64,000 nt of DNA from an uncultured delta proteobacterium (lineage in GTDB: Bacteria; Desulfobacterota; Syntrophobacteria; BM002), in NCBI GenBank assembly GCA_963712115.1, contig CAVQGX010000030.1, positions 64,001 through 128,000 of the forward strand, given 5' to 3'. Made by a program: the position numbers and the translations under genes. The notes below the pieces were generated by a model. That model was not told where the DNA came from. It worked only from the letters and a program-made list of their open reading frames with translations, and searched no databases. Of this stretch, positions 55,983 through 63,903 are shown one piece after another (within the stretch, counting starts at the first letter, position 1; each line of letters starts with the position of its first letter).

Positions 55983-56522
55983 ATGCCCGACTTCTTTGAA
56001 TTCCCCCAAATCGAAGGCGAGAGGCGGATCAACTCGCGTGTCTACTTGCGCGAGATTAAAGGTAGGGTTGAGGTTTTTAAGGATGGGGAAGTATATGCTG
56101 TTTTTGCTGAAAACGACAGGGAATTTCGTAAGGCGGTTATGATTCAGTTAGCTCGTCTTGGTGCTGCAAGTTTCCGGGAACTCTGTGCTGGTTTTCAGGT
56201 TGACCGTGAGACCTTGGAAAGATACCTCATTCGCTCTCAGGAAAGTGGTCTCCGTGCTGTGATGGACGACAAGCCCGGCCCTAAAGGCCCGTGGAAGGCT
56301 GATGATGTTACGCGCCTGGAGGTGATCAAAGAATACGTCAATGAACCCGGAATCTCTGACAGTGAGATTGCTCGACGAGTCTCGGCACGACGGCCTATTC
56401 AAGTAGACCATAAAATGGTAAACCGTATTCTTCGTCATGCCGGTCTGAAGGCCTCACCGGAGGTTGATTCCGTGAGCGACGAATCCCCAGCCAACCAACT
56501 CGCCCTCCGTTTCAAGACCTAA
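55983..56522 (+). CDS. Helix-turn-helix protein resembling a transposase N-terminal DNA-binding region; no DDE domain
   Basis: ELCAGFQVDRETLERY..ESGLRAVMDDKPGPKGPWK...SDSEIARR..VDHKMVNRILR (two HTH-like modules); GAGG RBS. Confidence 0.65.
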   Translation: MPDFFEFPQIEGERRINSRVYLREIKGRVEVFKDGEVYAVFAENDREFRKAVMIQLARLGAASFRELCAGFQVDRETLERYLIRSQESGLRAVMDDKPGPKGPWKADDVTRLEVIKEYVNEPGISDSEIARRVSARRPIQVDHKMVNRILRHAGLKASPEVDSVSDESPANQLALRFKT

Positions 56523-56529
56523 CCTTAGG

Positions 56530-56752
56530 GTTAATTTGTCGATTAGTTAATTAGTTGATTCGTCAATTAGTTGATTAGGGAATTTGATAATTAGTTAAAT
56601 AGTTCCAATACTTAACCGCTTACGGCTTACTGCTTACGGCTTACCAATACCGTTTACCGTTCACCGTTTACGACATAACGACTTCTATGATTTTTACGAC
56701 TTTTACGATCTCCGAACGATTTGACTATTCGACCAATCGACCAATTGACGAA
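56530..56752. repeat. Composite repeat: AATTAGT arms enclosing GCTTAC, ACCGTT and ACGAYTT arrays
   Basis: gtcgattagttaattagttgattcgtcaattag ... ttgactattcgaccaatcgaccaattgacg. Confidence 0.85.
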
Positions 56753-56753
56753 A

Positions 56754-57071
56754 TTAATAATACGTCTCGACAAATTTCTCTAGGTAGGCATAATAGATGG
56801 GCTGCATCTCGGTGAACTCGATGGCCATACCATCTGGTTCGCTTCTTCTGACAACACCTTTGGCCACAATGGGAAGGTATTGGGACTCGAGTGGAATTTG
56901 GAACTGAAGATTCACCTCAGTGTCCACTGGGAGGGGCTTGGCTGTTTCAATGAAGCATCCCAGGGGATTCAAATCCCTGATCATCCAGTCTTTCTCTTCG
57001 AAGACCCTGATGCCAAATTCCAAGCGTGGATAGCGTCTCCTGCTTTCGATATCCAATGATTCCTCCGCCAT
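56754..57071 (-). CDS. PilZ domain protein
   Basis: RRRYPR, DLNPLGCFI and GMAIEF; GGAG RBS. Confidence 0.85.
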   Translation of the reverse strand: MAEESLDIESRRRYPRLEFGIRVFEEKDWMIRDLNPLGCFIETAKPLPVDTEVNLQFQIPLESQYLPIVAKGVVRRSEPDGMAIEFTEMQPIYYAYLEKFVETYY

Positions 57072-57232
57072 ATGAAACTCCCCATATCACTCTGCAAATC
57101 AAGGGCCTCTGACTTGCGCCACTCCCGAGCATATAATTAAAGCTTGTTTGAAGGCAAACAAATAAAACAATTTTATCTAAATTTTGATTGTTTCCCTTGG
57201 CCCATATTTTGGGCCTCACGGTGGTGTAGTTA

Positions 57233-57248
57233 TGCAATCGGTATGCCA
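57233..57248 (-). promoter_or_regulatory. Sigma54 (-24/-12) promoter
   Basis: Minus strand reads TGGCATACCGATTGCA, upstream of the PilZ gene. Confidence 0.65.
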
Positions 57249-57443
57249 TAAATCCCGGATGTATAGAAAATAATTCGAATTTTTTGAATCGATTTTTCCA
57301 CAATATTCACGAACCACCATTTACAAATTAAAGGTTTCTACGGCTTCCTGTGAGCTATGAGCTTTCAGCTGTCAGCTAACTTGACGCCTTCAACATTTTG
57401 AACGACTTGAACGCTTTGAACGACTTGCCCCCCTCTTTCCCCC

Positions 57444-57473
57444 TTGACTTTCACCTAACTTTCACCCTATAAT
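57444..57473 (+). promoter_or_regulatory. Sigma70 promoter of the SOS operon with a candidate LexA operator (direct repeat)
   Basis: TTGACT-N18-TATAAT; ACTTTCACC is repeated at 57447 and 57458 (11-bp period) across the -35 box and spacer. Confidence 0.6.
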
Positions 57474-57488
57474 TCAAACATAGTTTGT

Positions 57489-57960
57489 AAATCCGAAATC
57501 CCAAGCACGAAATCCTAAACAAATTCAAATGTCCAAAGCACAAAATTCAAAACAATACGATTTGGAAGATCGCACTCTGGCTTTTGCTAAAGATGTACGC
57601 AGTTTCGTGAAAAAACTGCCGAAAACTTTAGCCAATATCGAAGACGGCAGACAGCTGATCAAAGCCCCCGGCTCCGTTGGTGCCAATTACATTGAAGCTA
57701 ATGAAGCTTTAAGCAAAAAAGATTTCATTATGAGAATTAAGATATGTCGCAAGGAGGGGAAAGAAAGCCGATATTGGCTGAGGTTGATTAGCACGGAAGA
57801 CATTAGAGAACTTGAAGAAGAAAGACGAGATTTGGAAAGAGAAGCCAGCGAGCTCACCAGTATTTTTGGTTCCATCCTGACTAAAAGCTCATGATGTTTT
57901 GGTGATTTGAAATTGGGATTTGGGATTTGTTTAGGATTTAGGATTTAGATATTGGGATTT
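57489..57960. mobile_element. Family C cassette carrying four-helix-bundle gene 1
   Basis: Inverted arms 57489-57554 and 57895-57960 share the exact IR AAATCCTAAACAAAT (57510-57524 / 57925-57939). Mobility is inferred. Confidence 0.65.
57529..57894 (+). CDS. Four helix bundle protein (TIGR02436 / 23S rRNA IVS-like family)
   Basis: DLEDRT..FA, QLIKAPGSVGANYIEA, DF..RIKICRKEGKESRYWL and EASEL. Confidence 0.9.
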   Translation: MSKAQNSKQYDLEDRTLAFAKDVRSFVKKLPKTLANIEDGRQLIKAPGSVGANYIEANEALSKKDFIMRIKICRKEGKESRYWLRLISTEDIRELEEERRDLEREASELTSIFGSILTKSS

Positions 57961-58038
57961 TCCCTAATCACCGTTTACCGTTCACCATTTACGAATTGAC
58001 TAATCAACGAATTGACCAATTGACTCAGAGGTATACCC

Positions 58039-58641
58039 ATGCAACTCACAAAACAGCAAACCCGAGTCTATAGCTATCTGGAGACCTATCTTCGCCGGAA
58101 AGGTAGGCCGCCATCTTACCAAGAAATCCAGGATTACTTTGGCTTTGGTTCCCTAAACTCAGTGGTCAAGCACCTCAAGCAGCTTGAACGCAAGGGCTAT
58201 CTGGAGAGTCCCTGGGGTAATCAGAAACGGGCTTTTCGCCTTCTACCTCTGCGAACAACTGCGGCTACCATACCCTTTCTCGGGAGGGTAGCTGCCGGCG
58301 CTCCCATCGAGGCTGTAGATATACCCGAAGCGGTGGAAGTGCCCGAAAGCCTGCTTGCCGGCGGTAACAACTTCGCCCTTCAAGTGCAAGGAGAGTCGAT
58401 GATCGATGAGGGCATTCGCGACGGGGATGTACTCATAATCCGAAAACAGGACCATGCTGACAATGGTCAGACCGTGGTGGCACAGATCGAAGGGGAGGCC
58501 ACAATAAAGAAGTTTTACCAGCGGGACGGTAGGGTGGAACTACGACCGGCGAATGAGGAACTGAAACCTCTCGTGGTTCCCGCCGAAAAGGTAGAAATCA
58601 TCGGCGTGGTTGTAGGGCTAGTCCGGCATTATAAGAGATAA
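58039..58641 (+). CDS. lexA: SOS repressor LexA
   Basis: PPSYQEI...HLKQLERKGY wHTH, VAAG cleavage site, GESM catalytic Ser and TIKK catalytic Lys. Confidence 0.96.
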   Translation: MQLTKQQTRVYSYLETYLRRKGRPPSYQEIQDYFGFGSLNSVVKHLKQLERKGYLESPWGNQKRAFRLLPLRTTAATIPFLGRVAAGAPIEAVDIPEAVEVPESLLAGGNNFALQVQGESMIDEGIRDGDVLIIRKQDHADNGQTVVAQIEGEATIKKFYQRDGRVELRPANEELKPLVVPAEKVEIIGVVVGLVRHYKR

Positions 58642-58657
58642 CGCAAAGCGTTTTCCG

Positions 58658-59200
58658 GCGAGACGAGCGAGACGGGAGGTCGAGCGAGACGGGGATTAAA
58701 TATCAAAATGATTACGCAGGTAATTACATGAGAAAGGGGCGCCATTATGAGTAAAAGCAAAAAGGTTAGTCGGTTCGAAGATTTGGAAGTTTGGCAGGAA
58801 GGATGTGATCTCGCTGTTCAAATTTACAAGCTGTCGAGAGAAGGAAAACTTGCAAGGGATTATGGTCTCAGGGATCAGATGACTAAATCCGCAGTTTCTA
58901 TTCCCTCAAACATAGCCGAGGGTAAGGAGCGTGAGACGGCACCAGAACTTATCCGCTACCTTTACATTGCCAAAGGCTCTACTGGTGAGTTGCAAACACA
59001 AATATACATAGCTCAGAGAATCGGCTACGTGGACGAAGGAACATCCTACAACCTTATTCAGCAAACCAAAGTTTTGTCCAAAAAACTAGGCAGCTTCATT
59101 CAATACCTTAAAAGAAACGTTGAGCTAGCGAGAAAGTGAGACAAGATAAAAAGGTCTGATCATTACTCGTCTCGCCCGTCTCGCTCGTCTCGCGTCTCGC
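58658..59200. mobile_element. Family B cassette carrying four-helix-bundle gene 2
   Basis: Exact 19-bp IR GCGAGACGAGCGAGACGGG (58658-58676) / CCCGTCTCGCTCGTCTCGC (59175-59193). Mobility is inferred. Confidence 0.65.
58747..59139 (+). CDS. Four helix bundle protein (TIGR02436 / 23S rRNA IVS-like family)
   Basis: FEDLEVWQ, LRDQM..SAVSIPSNIAEG and LYIAKGSTGELQTQ. Confidence 0.93.
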   Translation: MSKSKKVSRFEDLEVWQEGCDLAVQIYKLSREGKLARDYGLRDQMTKSAVSIPSNIAEGKERETAPELIRYLYIAKGSTGELQTQIYIAQRIGYVDEGTSYNLIQQTKVLSKKLGSFIQYLKRNVELARK

Positions 59201-59210
59201 GAAAATTGCT

Positions 59211-60446
59211 ATGCTTCGCGAAAAGATGATAAGCGAAATCTTACACTTAGATATCCGCGACTTCTGCATTGCCCTGGAACGGCAGCGACGGCCTGATCTG
59301 AGGGAATGGCCGGTAGTCGTCGCACCGGGGCAGGGGCGAACGGTGGTCCAGGCTGTCTCTCCCGAAGCCCGAGAGGAAGGCATACATCCGGGTATGGTCG
59401 TGGCTCGGGCCCGACAGTATTGCCGCCGTCTTACTGTGCTGCCTCCGGATTTCTCGCTCTATCGGCAAGCCCAGGAAAAGATAGTGACCGCTTTAGGAAG
59501 GTTTTCGCCCTTGGTGGAGCCGGCCTCCTGGGGACATTTCTTTGTTGATGCCACCGGGACTCGTCGCCTCTGGGGGGGGTTGCTCGATAGGGCTGATCTG
59601 ATGCGGCGATTGGTGGATACAGAATTTCAACTGGATACTGCTGTGGGTGTGGCCAGCAACAAACTGGTGAGCCGGGTTGCCTCCCGGGTGGTGAAGGCTC
59701 GGGAATTGTGTGATGTTTTTCCTGGACTGGAGGCTTCTTTCCTCTCACCTCTGGCGGTAAATGTTCTTCCCGGGGTGGGGGAAGTGACCACCGCCAGATT
59801 GCTAGCCGAACTTAATCTTCAAACCGCGGGAGAATTAGCCCACGTCTCCCCAATGCTTTTGAGTCAGATATTTGGAGCCGTGGGGCAAAGGCTTCGGAGC
59901 ATGGCTTTGGGAGAAGATCCCTCACCGGTGCTAACACCGAAAGCCGTGCCCATGTTGCGGGAAGAGGTTCAACTGCCGGAAGATGATAATCACCGGCATA
60001 GGTTGTTGGGTTATCTCTATGGGCTCGTTGAAGCACTGGGCCGCCGGTTGCGTTCCCAAAATCGCTGTCCCGGTGAACTGGCCCTTACAGCGACCTATGC
60101 AGACGGTGTTCAGGCGAGGGCGCGGGAGCGACTTGCTGTTGCCGGCTGTGAATTTCATTTGGACAGTTTTCTATATGAGGCAGCGTTACGGCTTTTCACT
60201 CAGGCTGTTCAGCGACGTATACGCTTAAGACGTTTGTCTCTAAACGTCGCCCATCTCCAGACCCCTTTCGGCCAACTGGCCTTATTCCCCTGGGACGACC
60301 CCGGCCGGGGCAAAGAGGTCAAGCTACTACGGGCTATCGACCAAGTCCGCCACCGTTTCGGTAACGAGGTGCTTTACTATGGACGCACGGAGGTCAGACG
60401 ACGGAGGACAGAGATCAGACGTCAGAGGTCAGAGGACAGAACTTAA
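59211..60446 (+). CDS. imuB: ImuB-like Y-family polymerase homologue (probably catalytically inactive)
   Basis: Y-family fold (LHLD, EAREEGI.PGM, GVASNKL.S, LPGVG). The SIDE catalytic motif is replaced by SWGH; clamp-binding-like QLALF; lies between lexA and dnaE2. Confidence 0.82.
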   Translation: MLREKMISEILHLDIRDFCIALERQRRPDLREWPVVVAPGQGRTVVQAVSPEAREEGIHPGMVVARARQYCRRLTVLPPDFSLYRQAQEKIVTALGRFSPLVEPASWGHFFVDATGTRRLWGGLLDRADLMRRLVDTEFQLDTAVGVASNKLVSRVASRVVKARELCDVFPGLEASFLSPLAVNVLPGVGEVTTARLLAELNLQTAGELAHVSPMLLSQIFGAVGQRLRSMALGEDPSPVLTPKAVPMLREEVQLPEDDNHRHRLLGYLYGLVEALGRRLRSQNRCPGELALTATYADGVQARARERLAVAGCEFHLDSFLYEAALRLFTQAVQRRIRLRRLSLNVAHLQTPFGQLALFPWDDPGRGKEVKLLRAIDQVRHRFGNEVLYYGRTEVRRRRTEIRRQRSEDRT

Positions 60447-60915
60447 GGGGTGACCAAAAATGCGCATTAATTCTGCAAAAGAGCTGAAGGTCTATCAAGA
60501 AGCTTACAGCTTGGCGATGGAGATTTTTGAAATCAGTAAGCAATGGCCACCCGAAGAGAAGTATTCTCTCATAGATCAGGTCAGACGATCATCCCGCTCA
60601 GTCTGTACAAATTTGCGTGAGGCCTGGTCGAAGAGGAGATATAAAGCACATTTCGTCAGCAAATTAACTGATTCCGATGGTGAAAATAGTGAGACTGATA
60701 CCTGGTTGGATTTTGCAAAAGATTGCGGATACGTGGAAAAAAGTGATCACACTCGACTGACGGAGAGATGTACGCGTGTCGGAAAGATGCTTGGGTCTAT
60801 GCTCAACAACCCTACACCGTTTTTAAGACGCTGACTTCTGATCTCCGATCTCCGATTTCTTATTTGCTGACCTCTGACCTCCGACTTCTGACCTCTGTGA
60901 TAGACGATTTTAACG
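60388..60915. mobile_element. Family A cassette carrying four-helix-bundle gene 3
   Basis: Left arm (CAGAGGT-type) 60388-60441 and right arm (CTGACCT-type) 60831-60897. It ends ctgacctctgtgatagacg like the gene-less copies. Mobility is inferred. Confidence 0.65.
60460..60834 (+). CDS. Four helix bundle protein (TIGR02436 / 23S rRNA IVS-like family)
   Basis: ELKVYQ, PPEEKYSLIDQVRRSSRSVCTNLREAW, FVSKLTDSDGENSET..WLDFA and GKMLGSM. Confidence 0.93.
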   Translation: MRINSAKELKVYQEAYSLAMEIFEISKQWPPEEKYSLIDQVRRSSRSVCTNLREAWSKRRYKAHFVSKLTDSDGENSETDTWLDFAKDCGYVEKSDHTRLTERCTRVGKMLGSMLNNPTPFLRR

Positions 60916-60933
60916 GCTCGGGACCGGAAGCCA

Positions 60934-63903
60934 ATGTTTATTCATCTCCACACTCACTCCTGTTACTCGTTGATGCGCGGCGCCAGTCAGCTGGAAGCAC
61001 TGGTCACAGCAGCGCGCCGGCGCGGTATGACCCATCTGGCCATCACTGATACCAATGGCTTCTATGGTCTCCCCAATTTTCTTGAAATAGCCAGAAAACA
61101 TAAAATCTCTCCCATTGTGGGAGTTCAGGTAACCGCCCGGGACGGAGAAGCGGTACTGCTGGCCAGGACCCCTGAAGCCTATCCGTACCTGAGCGAACTG
61201 GTAAGTTGTCGACATCTAGAGGATACTTTTTCCCTGACTTCAGCTCTGGCTTCCGGTCTTCCCGGCTTGGCTGTGCTTAGTTCTGATTTGGAGCTGCTCT
61301 CAAGGCTACAAGGGTGTGCCGAGCTCTATGTGGAAATACGTCCTGGTGCAGAAGGGGAGGGGCCTTTAAGATTTGCCCGGGAACGCCAGTTACCCAGAGT
61401 GGCCACCAATGCAGTCTACTTCGCCGATCCGGAAGGCTATTCCTTGCACCGATTGCTGCGCGCCATTGATTTGAACACCACCCTTACCAATCTACCCGAG
61501 GATGAAGTGGTCCACCCGGGACAGTGGTTAAAATCTACCGGACAAATGGCAGTCCACTTTCCCCATTGCCCAGAGGCTATGGCTGAAGCTATTCACCTTG
61601 CTCATCGCTGCCACACGGAGTGGAACTTCAGTGGCCAGATCTTTCCTCACTACCGGGATCAGGAGCGGGATCACTTTCAACTCTTACGACAAAAATGTTT
61701 GGAAGGAGTGAACTGGCGCTACGGTGAGATGAATCCGGCGGTGGCCGAGCGTCTGGAAGAAGAGCTTTCCCTTATTCGGGACAAAGGTTTCACCGACTAT
61801 TTCTTAATCGTAGCAGACATTGTCCAGGATGCACCAATAACCTGTGGACGGGGCAGTGCTGCCGCAAGTCTGGTGAGCTATCTTCTCGGCATTACCCACG
61901 TTGATCCCATCCGCCACCAGCTTTTCTTTGGCCGATTTCTCAGTCCCAATCGGCGGGACTTTCCCGACATTGACGTGGATTTCCCCTGGGATGAGCGGGA
62001 TGAAATACTCGATTCTGTGGAACGTGCCTATGGCAGTGAACGAACCGCCATGGTGGCCAATCACGTAGGTTTTCGCAGCAGGGCTGCAGTTCGGGAGGTG
62101 GCCAAGGTATATGGAATAACACCGGCGGAAATCAAAGAGGTAACCAGGCGGCTTTCCTTTTTCGGTCGCCCCACAAAGATCCCGGAGCGAATGGCCCGCC
62201 ACCCCAAATTCAGGAATTTACACCTGGAACCACCATGGCCTGAAATTTTCCAGTTAGCCGGTCGGTTGGAAGGTATTCCCCGCCACCTTTCCGTGCATTG
62301 TGGCGGCACTATTATTGTTCCAGATCAGGTTCAGCGCTATGTGCCTGTGCAGCGGGCCACTAAAGGGGTGCGAGTAATTCAGTGGGAAAAGGATCAAGCC
62401 GAGGCGGCCGGTCTGGTAAAGATCGATCTATTGGGTAATCGCTCTTTAGCAGTGATTCGTGACACCCTTGCTGCTATTCGCCACAACACCGGGAGAAATA
62501 TCTCTTATGCCCAGCTCAACCCTGTTGATAATCCTGCCACCCAGGAGTTGATTGCCAGGGGTGAGACCATGGGTGTTTTTTACGTGGAATCACCTGCCAT
62601 ACGCCAGCTACAGCAAATGACCGGGCGGGGTGACTACGAGCATTTGGTCATTCACTCATCGATTATTCGCCCGGCAGCCAACCGCTACATTTTGGAATAT
62701 GTGCGACGCCTCAAAGGTGGTTCATATAGGAGCCTACATCCGGTTCTGGATGAGGTGCTCGCCGAGAACTATGGCATCATGGTGTACCAGGAGGACGTCT
62801 CCCAGATTGCCATGAAACTGGCGGGGTTCGATCCTGCCGAGGCTGACACTTTGCGCAAGATTTTGTCCTGGAAAAGTAAAGAACGACTGGCCGACTATCG
62901 CACCCATTTTTTTGAAGGCAGCCGCCAAAGAGGGGTGAGCCGCGAGGTAAGCGAAACTGTTTGGGAAATGATCGAATCTTTCGGGGGCTACAGCTTCTGC
63001 AAGCCTCATTCGGCCAGCTATGCCCTGGTGAGCTTCAAGTCAGCTTATCTCAAGGTACATTATCCTGCCGAGTTCATGGCTGCGGTGATTTCCAATGGCG
63101 GGGGGTATTATTCCACTTTTGCCTATGTTTCCGAGGCCAGGCGGATGGGGCTACAGGTTCTGGGGCCGGATGTCAACGGTAGCGCCATCGAATACACAGG
63201 CAAAGATCGAACTTTGCGGGTGGGATTGATGCAACTTCAAGGATTTCCACGTGATGTTGCCGAGACCATCGTCAGCGAACGGCTTGAGAATGGGCTTTTT
63301 AACTCCCTGGACGATTTTTGTCTGAGAGTTAATCTTGAACCTGCCGCCGCCCGAATTTTAGTGCAAAGTGGGGCTTTAGACAGCATCTCCGGCGGGCTAA
63401 ATCGGCCGCAAATGCTCTGGCGGTTTTATGGTGAACCGAAAGATCAGGCCGTTGGCCAATCCTTTTCCCTTGTGCCCGTTGCCATCGATCCATCCCAATG
63501 GCCCCAGGTTGAAGACTATGATCGCTCTACCAAACTGTCCCATGAACGGGAGACCCTGGGTTTCATACTTTCAGTTCACCCTTTGAGGGTTTATGGTCGA
63601 AAGATTGCTGCCAGTGGGCGCAAAATCGTGCCGGCCAGTGAGCTCTCCAGATACGTGGGCCGAAGAGTAACCCTTGCAGCATGGTCCATAACCGGAAAAG
63701 AGGTAGTTACTAAAAAGGGCGACCCCATGGAGTTTGTCTCTTTCGAGGATGAGACCGCCATCTTCGAGACCACCTTCTTCCCCAAAGCTTACCAACGCTT
63801 CTGCCAGATACTGGATATGAACCGCGCCTATCTCCTCACCGGTCTAGTTCAAGAACAGTACGACACGGTGAGTGTTAATGTGGAGCAGATCCAGCGATTG
63901 TAG
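60934..63903 (+). CDS. dnaE2: Error-prone DNA polymerase III alpha subunit (DnaE2/ImuC)
   Basis: PHP domain HLHTHSCYS, GRGSAA, PDIDVDF, KIDLLG, YSFCKPHS and an OB fold; context with lexA and imuB. Confidence 0.92.
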   Translation: MFIHLHTHSCYSLMRGASQLEALVTAARRRGMTHLAITDTNGFYGLPNFLEIARKHKISPIVGVQVTARDGEAVLLARTPEAYPYLSELVSCRHLEDTFSLTSALASGLPGLAVLSSDLELLSRLQGCAELYVEIRPGAEGEGPLRFARERQLPRVATNAVYFADPEGYSLHRLLRAIDLNTTLTNLPEDEVVHPGQWLKSTGQMAVHFPHCPEAMAEAIHLAHRCHTEWNFSGQIFPHYRDQERDHFQLLRQKCLEGVNWRYGEMNPAVAERLEEELSLIRDKGFTDYFLIVADIVQDAPITCGRGSAAASLVSYLLGITHVDPIRHQLFFGRFLSPNRRDFPDIDVDFPWDERDEILDSVERAYGSERTAMVANHVGFRSRAAVREVAKVYGITPAEIKEVTRRLSFFGRPTKIPERMARHPKFRNLHLEPPWPEIFQLAGRLEGIPRHLSVHCGGTIIVPDQVQRYVPVQRATKGVRVIQWEKDQAEAAGLVKIDLLGNRSLAVIRDTLAAIRHNTGRNISYAQLNPVDNPATQELIARGETMGVFYVESPAIRQLQQMTGRGDYEHLVIHSSIIRPAANRYILEYVRRLKGGSYRSLHPVLDEVLAENYGIMVYQEDVSQIAMKLAGFDPAEADTLRKILSWKSKERLADYRTHFFEGSRQRGVSREVSETVWEMIESFGGYSFCKPHSASYALVSFKSAYLKVHYPAEFMAAVISNGGGYYSTFAYVSEARRMGLQVLGPDVNGSAIEYTGKDRTLRVGLMQLQGFPRDVAETIVSERLENGLFNSLDDFCLRVNLEPAAARILVQSGALDSISGGLNRPQMLWRFYGEPKDQAVGQSFSLVPVAIDPSQWPQVEDYDRSTKLSHERETLGFILSVHPLRVYGRKIAASGRKIVPASELSRYVGRRVTLAAWSITGKEVVTKKGDPMEFVSFEDETAIFETTFFPKAYQRFCQILDMNRAYLLTGLVQEQYDTVSVNVEQIQRL

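Follow-up and report, generated by a model that had tools for sequence, protein, structure and literature searches.

The window analyzed here, a stretch of 64,000 nucleotides (nt) from an uncultured delta proteobacterium (contig CAVQGX010000030.1, positions 64,001 to 128,000), contains three small genes for four-helix-bundle (4HB) proteins that alternate with the genes of an SOS operon. Around positions 57489-60915 the genes follow each other on the + strand in the order 4HB-1, lexA, 4HB-2, imuB-like, 4HB-3 and dnaE2. Each of the 4HB genes is enclosed by two arrays of short tandem repeats, which are inverted relative to each other; in the following we call the arrays arms and the arrangement of arm, gene and arm a cassette. 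Profile matches identify the host genes as lexA (58039-58641), an imuB-like gene for a Y-family polymerase (59211-60446) and a dnaE2-type polymerase gene (60934-63903). Cassettes 2 and 3 occupy the lexA|imuB and the imuB|dnaE2 spacer. Cassette 1 probably lies in the lexA leader, since a promoter-like site (TTGACT-18-TATAAT, 11/12, from a consensus scan only) is present directly upstream of it on the + strand at 57444-57473; the same sequence occurs upstream of lexA in the closest relative of the source genome (G002). With this layout the cassettes would be co-transcribed with lexA.

The arms were located with inverted-repeat and tandem-repeat scans. In cassette 1 the gene 4HB-1 (57529-57894, 121 residues) stands between a left arm of AAATCCN heptamers (57489-57536) and an inverted AAATCCN array (57913-57960). 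The two arms of 48 nt show a 71% inverted match with an exact 15-bp core (57510-57524 and 57925-57939), and the tandem unit was scored as TTGGGAT with 7.3 copies. The ATG of 4HB-1 (57529) is located within the left arm, and degenerate repeats continue through the first ~9 codons. Cassette 2 consists of a left arm of GCGAGACGR nonamers (58658-58693), the gene 4HB-2 (58747-59139, 130 residues) and a right arm of CGTCTCGCN (59166-59201); here 19 nt (58658-58676 and 59175-59193) are inverted copies with 100% match, and the tandem units are GCGAGACGA (3.9 copies) and CGTCTCGCC (2.9 copies). The left arm of cassette 3 (60386-60447) is built from heptamers of the type TC-R-GA-N-R (GAGGTCA and similar). 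It is followed by 4HB-3 (60460-60834, 124 residues) and by a right arm in two blocks (60831-60899), of which the first, 60831-60854, contains the TGA codon of the gene (60832-60834). Over 40 nt (60408-60447 and 60859-60898) the inverted match is 83%, with GAGGTCA (7.3 copies) and CTGACCT (4.4 copies) as tandem units. An arm generally comprises about 4-7 copies of a unit of 7-9 nt. These coordinates bear out an earlier note, written from the sequence alone, as regards the exact inverted repeats of 15 and 19 bp at genes 1 and 2 and the two codons inside the arms, namely the start of gene 1 and the stop of gene 3. The note had also assigned a different repeat to each gene; the units do differ, but the families are not private to the genes, as each has tens to hundreds of gene-less copies elsewhere in the source genome.

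All three proteins match PF05635 (E-values of 2e-11, 4.4e-34 and 4.6e-33 and scores of 44.5, 117.3 and 114.0 bits for genes 1-3, cut-off 33.8) and TIGR02436 (64.8, 113.4 and 101.3 bits, cut-off 24), with 4HB-1 as a divergent member. The recognition of three genes of this family, each between inverted tandem arrays, therefore holds. PF05635 is the only domain profile that the cassette genes match, and PF00078, the profile for reverse transcriptase, gave 0 matches in the source genome; this agrees with the statement that the cassettes encode no transposase, integrase or reverse transcriptase, with the limit that no search was aimed at integrases. A profile of eight paralogues matches the structures 2gsc and 2rld, each with five chains per entry, at about 1e-26, and the residues Q, S, N, E and E are invariant across the eight. 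The proteins are basic, with an isoelectric point of about 9 (>8 in 24/27 relatives). Judged from substitution rates, intact 4HB-3 is under purifying selection: its ratio of nonsynonymous to synonymous divergence (dN/dS) is 0.10 and 0.08, compared with 0.19 for imuB in the same genome pairs. In the single pair of the source genome and G007 (locus L018), the dS of 4HB-3 (0.37) is below that of the adjacent imuB (0.62), which hints that the cassette was exchanged more recently than its host gene.

Upstream of the ATG, most cassettes of several clades have a strong ribosome-binding motif similar to GAAAGGGGCRCC. The motifs are variants of GAAAGGGGCGCC, a strong Shine-Dalgarno-like sequence that can be read on the + strand at 58732-58743, 3 nt before the ATG of 4HB-2. 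Cassettes 2 and 3 have their own strong site; cassette 1, in which the arm reaches the ATG, has no such motif. The upstream neighbour is co-oriented with the cassette gene in 12/13, 17/18 and 44/48 cases. Together, the ribosome-binding motif and the sense orientation are consistent with a promoterless gene that is translated.

Inverted arrays and protein clades

The source genome contains 14 PF05635 matches at 13 loci. We scored the flanks of these genes with an ungapped inverted alignment, for which the threshold was a score of 12 or more; the duplex energy of 120-nt flanks was dropped as a measure since it did not discriminate, the control median being already -43. All 13 loci pass the threshold, compared with 20 of 1500 sampled control open reading frames (ORFs; 1.3%), so that the comparison with other genes, which the earlier note had named as a possible refutation, turned out in favor of an association. 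In 17 congeneric genomes 23 of 27 loci have such inverted flanks, and the four exceptions include one masked by N. An enrichment is found beyond the genus as well. Relatives of 4HB-2 were collected from several phyla (54 loci, 51 with usable flanks), and 22/51 of these loci reach the threshold as compared to 13/255 mismatched flank pairs.

The repeat family goes with the protein clade. Within the genus (27 loci in the 17 congeners), cassettes of one clade share a repeat family even at different loci and in different genomes; the MAKFRFQDL clade, for example, is flanked by GCATAGR and the MIRTFKDL clade by GCAGCRG. Among the cross-phylum relatives, 21 loci from Desulfobacterota, Nitrospirota and an alphaproteobacterium encode proteins with 54-72% identity to 4HB-2. 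In these loci the motif GCGRGA was counted 65 times upstream of the gene in sense and 53 times downstream in antisense, as compared to 2 and 1 for the other 30 loci. For 4HB-3, 80 of 450 metagenome relatives with an identity of 70-100% were kept. In a reciprocal test, in which a double unit was sought within 130 nt, the 4HB-2-type nonamer (GCGRGAN3) was found in 19 of the 21 loci of the 4HB-2 clade and the 4HB-3-type heptamer in none. Conversely, 63 of 67 loci of the 4HB-3 clade have the heptamer (TC-R-GA-N-R) and none has the nonamer, and the 30 loci of other clades have neither. The matching of protein subfamily and repeat family that the earlier note had suggested is thus borne out, and no case is crossed.

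Four positions in the heptamer profile of the 4HB-3 clade are nearly invariant (T.92, C.99, G 1.0 and A.94), and three vary. The orientation of the arrays at 62 loci of this clade is inverted in 31 cases, direct in 6 and mixed in 2; by a strict rule the remaining 23 are incomplete. The downstream array is nearly always antisense (204 vs 10).

Turnover of the cassettes in related genomes

Next we compared the spacers of the SOS operon in nine relatives with imuB orthologues of 61-92% identity. In the lexA|imuB spacer, which in the source genome contains the GCGAGACG cassette, genome G011 has a 68-nt hairpin of the same repeat family without a gene. G013 has a cassette with GCGCATAGCG arms and a protein only 29% identical to 4HB-2; the same type occurs in G010, with most of the gene deleted and a remaining length of 193 nt. 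Other cassettes are found in G005 (GGTCATG arms, protein 50% identical to 4HB-2) and G006 (GTAAACG arms, 39%). G002 has arrays alone (143 nt), and the spacer has 25 nt in G008 and 3 nt in G020, a relative from another genus. The picture is similar for the imuB|dnaE2 spacer. The 4HB-3 cassette is present in the source genome, G002 and G007 with 92-95% protein identity, a related one (56%) in G005, and a GCGCATA cassette in G010. A gene-less hairpin is found in G011; 34 identical nt are common to its left arm and that of 4HB-2. Arrays alone are present in G013, G008 and G006, and the 53-nt spacer of G020 has no arrays. Upstream of lexA, G002 has kept both AAATCC arms, with ~85 unrelated nt where the gene would be. 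The orthologous sites are hence empty, reduced to arms, decayed or filled with unrelated cassettes.

Two genomes, G007 and G010, contain one cassette type in both spacers. The duplicates are homologous up to the outer array ends and no further, and these duplicated cassettes lack a target-site duplication. Because the sites are polymorphic, the paralogues share both gene and arms and the homology ends with the arrays, the earlier view of gene plus arms as one unit can be upheld. As far as sequence comparison goes, these data show gain, replacement and loss of the arm-gene-arm unit as well as its copying to new sites, in many cases to the next spacer. They also show, on the same comparative grounds, that decayed genes leave two-armed or one-armed remnants, which now fill the spacers of the genus.

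Such remnants are frequent in the source genome. A blastn search with the left and right cassette ends found 68 and 25 matches elsewhere in the genome for cassette 1, 37 and 22 for cassette 2 and 22 and 100 for cassette 3. Eleven copies of the cassette 1 type, 119-227 nt long and distributed over 9 contigs, have two arms and no gene. Their arms, which take in ~26 nt of the ORF and the bases directly past the stop codon, are 86-97% identical and have the termini AAATCC...GGATTT. No target-site duplication was found at the ends of these 11 copies.

Three of the 14 PF05635 matches of the source genome contain in-frame stops. There is also one truncated match and one split gene. The split gene (locus L012, 1071-1742, corresponding to about 38441-39065 of contig C14) is cut in two by an ORF of 84 residues for a GIY-YIG nuclease (PF01541, E-value 3.4e-15); in this case a small nuclease gene is located inside a cassette gene. 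Another region of the source genome (contig C42, about 157500-160900) contains two decayed cassettes and a third array, all with the nonamer GYCTAAART, in successive spacers of an operon with ORFs for membrane proteins, which from their N-termini we take to be nuo genes; this is a further example of one family in adjacent spacers.

Arms as stem halves or as recognition units

The layout of the cassettes allows the view that they are RNA elements of the intervening sequence (IVS) type. The arms would then be selected to pair as a stem, RNase III would excise the loop with the ORF from the operon mRNA, and the element would spread, perhaps via RNA or a hairpin. The protein family and the layout are indeed those of the IVS in the 23S rRNA of Coxiella burnetii, according to PMC4990558. 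In this system the IVS has a 28-bp terminal stem and is excised by RNase III, two to three tandem heptamers (GACAGAT) precede the S23p ORF, and the cut occurs at the first repeat (PMC4990558). Like the cassettes, the IVS (also known from Leptospira, by citation in that paper) have terminal inverted repeats on both sides of an ORF, with tandem heptamers at the 5' end, are sporadic and horizontally acquired, and often contain a decaying ORF; an idea from 1993, cited there, is that the ORF serves mobility (PMC4990558). In our cassettes the arms pair with each other in the predicted minimum-energy folds (29, 24 and 46 bp for cassettes 1-3, with z of -3.8, -4.6 and -3.5 against mononucleotide shuffles), and the sense orientation within transcription units points in the same direction.

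The cassettes differ from the known IVS in that they reside in a protein-coding operon (lexA, imuB, dnaE2) and not in helix 9, 25 or 45 of 23S rRNA; whole arms are arrays of clade-specific units, gene-less copies are dispersed over the genome and the protein is clearly conserved (dN/dS of about 0.1). Other observations do not agree with the view of an RNA element. When the order of the units was shuffled in one arm, the complementarity of the real arms was better in none of 18 loci of the 4HB-3 clade and in none of 19 loci of the source genome and its genus (together 0/37; the criterion was to beat 190/200 shuffles). The best arm-arm alignments, from 118 loci, contain 177 mismatches of the G-U type and 167 of the A-C type (p 0.63); there is no excess of the former and thus no signature of selection on an RNA helix of the transcribed strand. 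The direct arrays at 6/62 loci of the 4HB-3 clade are also unfavorable. Of the earlier proposal that the unit folds into a long stem with the ORF in the loop, the predicted pairing of the arms persists, but a mirrored unit order and a G-U excess are missing.

The enzyme for such an excision was not found either. Neither two Pfam models (PF14622 and PF00636) nor an RNase III protein from a congener, used as query, detected an RNase III in the assemblies of the source genome and G002; the enzyme is present in G005, G006, G007, G008, G011 and G013, with 81-84% identity to the query protein. This reflects either a loss in the sub-lineage or a gap in the assemblies. The genes which flank rnc in G007 have only 29-53% matches in the source genome, so a piece of the assembly may be missing. 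In addition, two RNA and two DNA runs (Logan contigs) were compared with 57300-61300. RNA contigs bridge the arms, with no joint specific for excision, and the arms recruit contigs of many loci. The joints that span cassettes 1 and 2 are short on either side (19-50 nt) and are present in DNA runs too; at cassette 2 the sides are separated by 20-40 other letters. The joints at cassette 2 therefore come from other loci and not from spliced RNA. An Rfam scan of 56500-61500 at E-values up to 1 matched no family.

Taken together, an IVS-type RNA element is an unlikely explanation for the cassettes. Of the two RNA routes named in the earlier note, excision from RNA has against it that no RNase III was found in the two assemblies, which may have a gap there, and that the arms are without the signature of a stem; spread by RNA finds no reverse transcriptase and the same lack of co-evolving arms. 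Retro-mobility was rejected on the grounds that PF00078 had no match in the source genome. The arms behave as clade-specific arrays of units and not as the co-evolving halves of a stem, and this favors recognition by the cassette's own protein. On this analysis we give about even odds to the view that the repeat units of the arms serve as recognition sites for the basic protein encoded between them.

A proposed single-gene cassette type and its alternatives

The reading that we prefer, with a probability of roughly 0.58, is that each of the three genes was inserted separately and belongs to a widespread and so far undescribed type of single-gene cassette, whose arms are read by its own protein. 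In the literature searched, which covered few subscription journals and main texts only, we found no description of such a class. According to this reading, a promoterless 4HB gene would sit in sense within a host transcription unit between two inverted arrays. Its protein, the solved relatives of which have five chains per entry, may bind the units of the arms in the way of subterminal binding repeats at transposon ends. Arm pairing would be a by-product that permits excision by RNase III where the element sits in rRNA; the same design could in this way be excised from rRNA. The lack of a transposase, a reverse transcriptase and target-site duplications, together with the frequent copies in the next spacer, weakly suggests that copying might occur via host replication or recombination between arrays.

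Several points weigh against this reading. The recognition of the repeats by the cassette protein is proposed from sequence comparison, the PF05635 family lacks a known catalytic motif, and the loci compared did not reveal an insertion in progress. Related loci are not independent samples, so the clade-repeat counts overstate the significance, although the pattern is clean; the association could also be obtained from common descent of the whole cassette alone. In the 4HB-3 clade 6 of the 62 loci are direct and 23 are without the strict double unit on one side. The 11 gene-less copies are ~90% identical in their arms, yet their centers do not align with one another, and simple copying and decay therefore fits these copies poorly. 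The number of arrays is also independent of a resident cognate protein. Matches to AAATCCN x3 number 275 in the source genome, 213 in G002, 181 in G011, 167 in G013 and 245 in G008, with 19 or fewer for controls, and G002 has only one PF05635 gene, which belongs to another clade. The idea that abundant arrays need a resident cognate gene was rejected on the basis of these 167-275 matches in all five genomes searched. Finally, the source genome is a metagenome bin (4.9 Mb in 70 contigs, 94.4% complete, 5.99% contamination).

The abundance of arrays invites a different explanation, namely that the 4HB proteins are domesticated host regulators, that the paired arrays throughout the genome are their operators, and that the cassettes are autoregulated and not mobile. 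For the source genome, the tandem-repeat scan (TRF) lists 5070 rows, of which 2573 have period 7, 633 period 9 and 501 period 8; merged, they give 4110 array loci or 2.4% of the DNA. Thousands of arrays in spacers would suit a regulator, as would the purifying selection on the intact gene and the fact that the three commonest heptamer families (AAATCCG, GCATAGA and CAGAGGT) are arm families of resident cassettes. Paired arrays in Geobacter metallireducens have been proposed as putative binding sites of global regulators; they consist of 3-5 tandem units of 7-9 nt, form opposite-strand pairs at variable distance and, like the cassette arms, lie in spacers, for example proB|proA (PMC2700814). 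The class MTYCTGA of these arrays resembles the reverse complement of the 4HB-3 unit; the arrays are treated as regulatory, and the terms "four helix" and "intervening sequence" have 0 occurrences each in the paper (PMC2700814). The genomes of the genus, however, contain between 1 and 14 PF05635 matches, the gene is broken in several copies, unrelated cassettes are swapped at orthologous sites and arrays remain abundant where the cognate gene is absent. This makes a role as host regulator improbable.

Period 7 also stands out against the 223-633 rows for periods 6, 8 and 9, and the 30 largest unit families account for 90% of the period-7 arrays. Cyanobacterial short tandemly repeated repetitive sequences are likewise abundant tandem heptamers in spacers, with few families per genome. 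To our knowledge no gene partner has been described for them, and a literature search for a link to the PF05635 gene family found no such paper.

With so many arrays, small genes might lie between them by chance. The 2573 period-7 rows and 4110 merged loci make this conceivable, and 92 inverted pairs of the same family are spaced 150-1500 nt apart (22 of them only 150-300 nt); many of these pairs enclose ORFs other than PF05635 genes, which from their N-termini, judged by eye, we take to be housekeeping-like. Coincidence is nevertheless very improbable, because it is already contradicted by the enrichment at 13/13 loci over 1.3% of controls and by the clade-repeat counts, and clade-specific repeats accompany the gene into other phyla and gene contexts. 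A role of the 4HB proteins as Avd-type accessory factors of a diversity-generating retroelement can practically be dismissed, since the matches of 4HB-3 to PF22296 (bAvd, 38.3 bits) and NF033474 (32 bits) are weak and under the cut-offs of 40 and 80, PF00078 is unmatched and no pair of template and variable repeats was seen, even though PF05635 resembles the homologous, small and basic four-helix-bundle protein Avd (structure PDB 4DWL, cited there) according to PMC10053308.

Separate insertions of a cassette read by its own protein invite comparison with known mobile elements. Repetitive extragenic palindromes (REP/REPIN) with their RAYT genes, and miniature inverted-repeat transposable elements (MITEs) with autonomous partners, also combine one gene between inverted copies of its own repeat with many two-armed gene-less derivatives in spacers, and the IS200/IS605-RAYT group makes no target-site duplications. 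The cassettes differ from these elements in that their protein is a helical bundle of 120 residues and not a Y1/HUH or DDE enzyme, and in that they have tandem arrays and not single palindromes. A RAYT-like partner was rejected as well: the four Y1_Tnp (PF01797) genes of the source genome lie elsewhere, with their own palindromes and other flanks. Two of the IS200/IS605-type Y1 transposase genes (contig C64, 8012-8374, and contig C48, 16547-16906) are identical, carry GC-rich palindromes of their own (CCCCGCAGCTTGCTGCGGGG) and show no apparent relation to the heptamer arms. Terminal inverted repeats and the 11 two-armed gene-less copies that share both ends are features in common with terminal-inverted-repeat transposons and MITEs, but no target-site duplication was found and the cassette proteins have no transposase domain. 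The ends of Tn7, Mu, Ac/Ds and En/Spm contain several short, repeated and inverted units for transposase binding, in which the sequence and not the pairing is conserved; the cassettes, unlike these elements, are without a recognizable transposase. An integron cassette has a single attC at its 3' end and an array beside intI, in contrast to the two arms and dispersed sites found here.

A more far-reaching view, which we consider only tentatively and would hold to be rather doubtful, is that PF05635 proteins recognize, by their sequence, the ends of a new class of mobile elements without a known transposase, and might even be its active agents. The tandem arrays in the spacers of many bacteria (here 2.4% of the genome) and the rRNA intervening sequences with an ORF could then be its footprints. 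The locus described here and its relatives connect these two old puzzles with a very large protein family to which no function has been assigned. The preferred reading predicts that each protein clade binds its own unit, TC-R-GA-N-R or GCGRGAN3, and that the arm-gene-arm unit moves. As the unit order is not mirrored, a G-U bias is absent and RNase III was not found, the focus for experiments shifts from RNA processing to the recognition of repeats by the protein.

The cassettes are passengers that colonized the SOS operon and not parts of the mutasome; in an annotation, the 4HB genes and their arms should be read in this sense. A general link to the SOS operon was rejected, as lexA, imuB or dnaE2 occurs within 2 kb in 0/54 of the cross-phylum loci, and 66 of 70 loci of the 4HB-3 clade are away from imuB and dnaE2. 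The cassettes do add about 20 residues to ImuB. At 60386-60446 the last ~20 codons of the imuB-like gene are arm sequence and encode the C-terminal tail TEVRRRRTEIRRQRSEDRT. Past the conserved YYGR this tail is encoded by arrays in every genome of the genus and differs from genome to genome; that of G020, the relative from another genus, is unrelated. The array-encoded tail should not be annotated as a native domain of ImuB.

Two further features are located near cassette 1. The palindrome CAAACATAGTTTG at 57475-57487, between the -10-like hexamer and the left arm, may be the LexA operator; it is conserved in G002 as CAAACGTAGTTTG. Outside both arms, at 57353-57427 and 57970-58024, there are tandem arrays of other families (AGCTATC, TTGAACGAC, ACCGTTT and AATTGACC). 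They look like layers of older arms, and similar mosaics are present in the spacers of the relatives.

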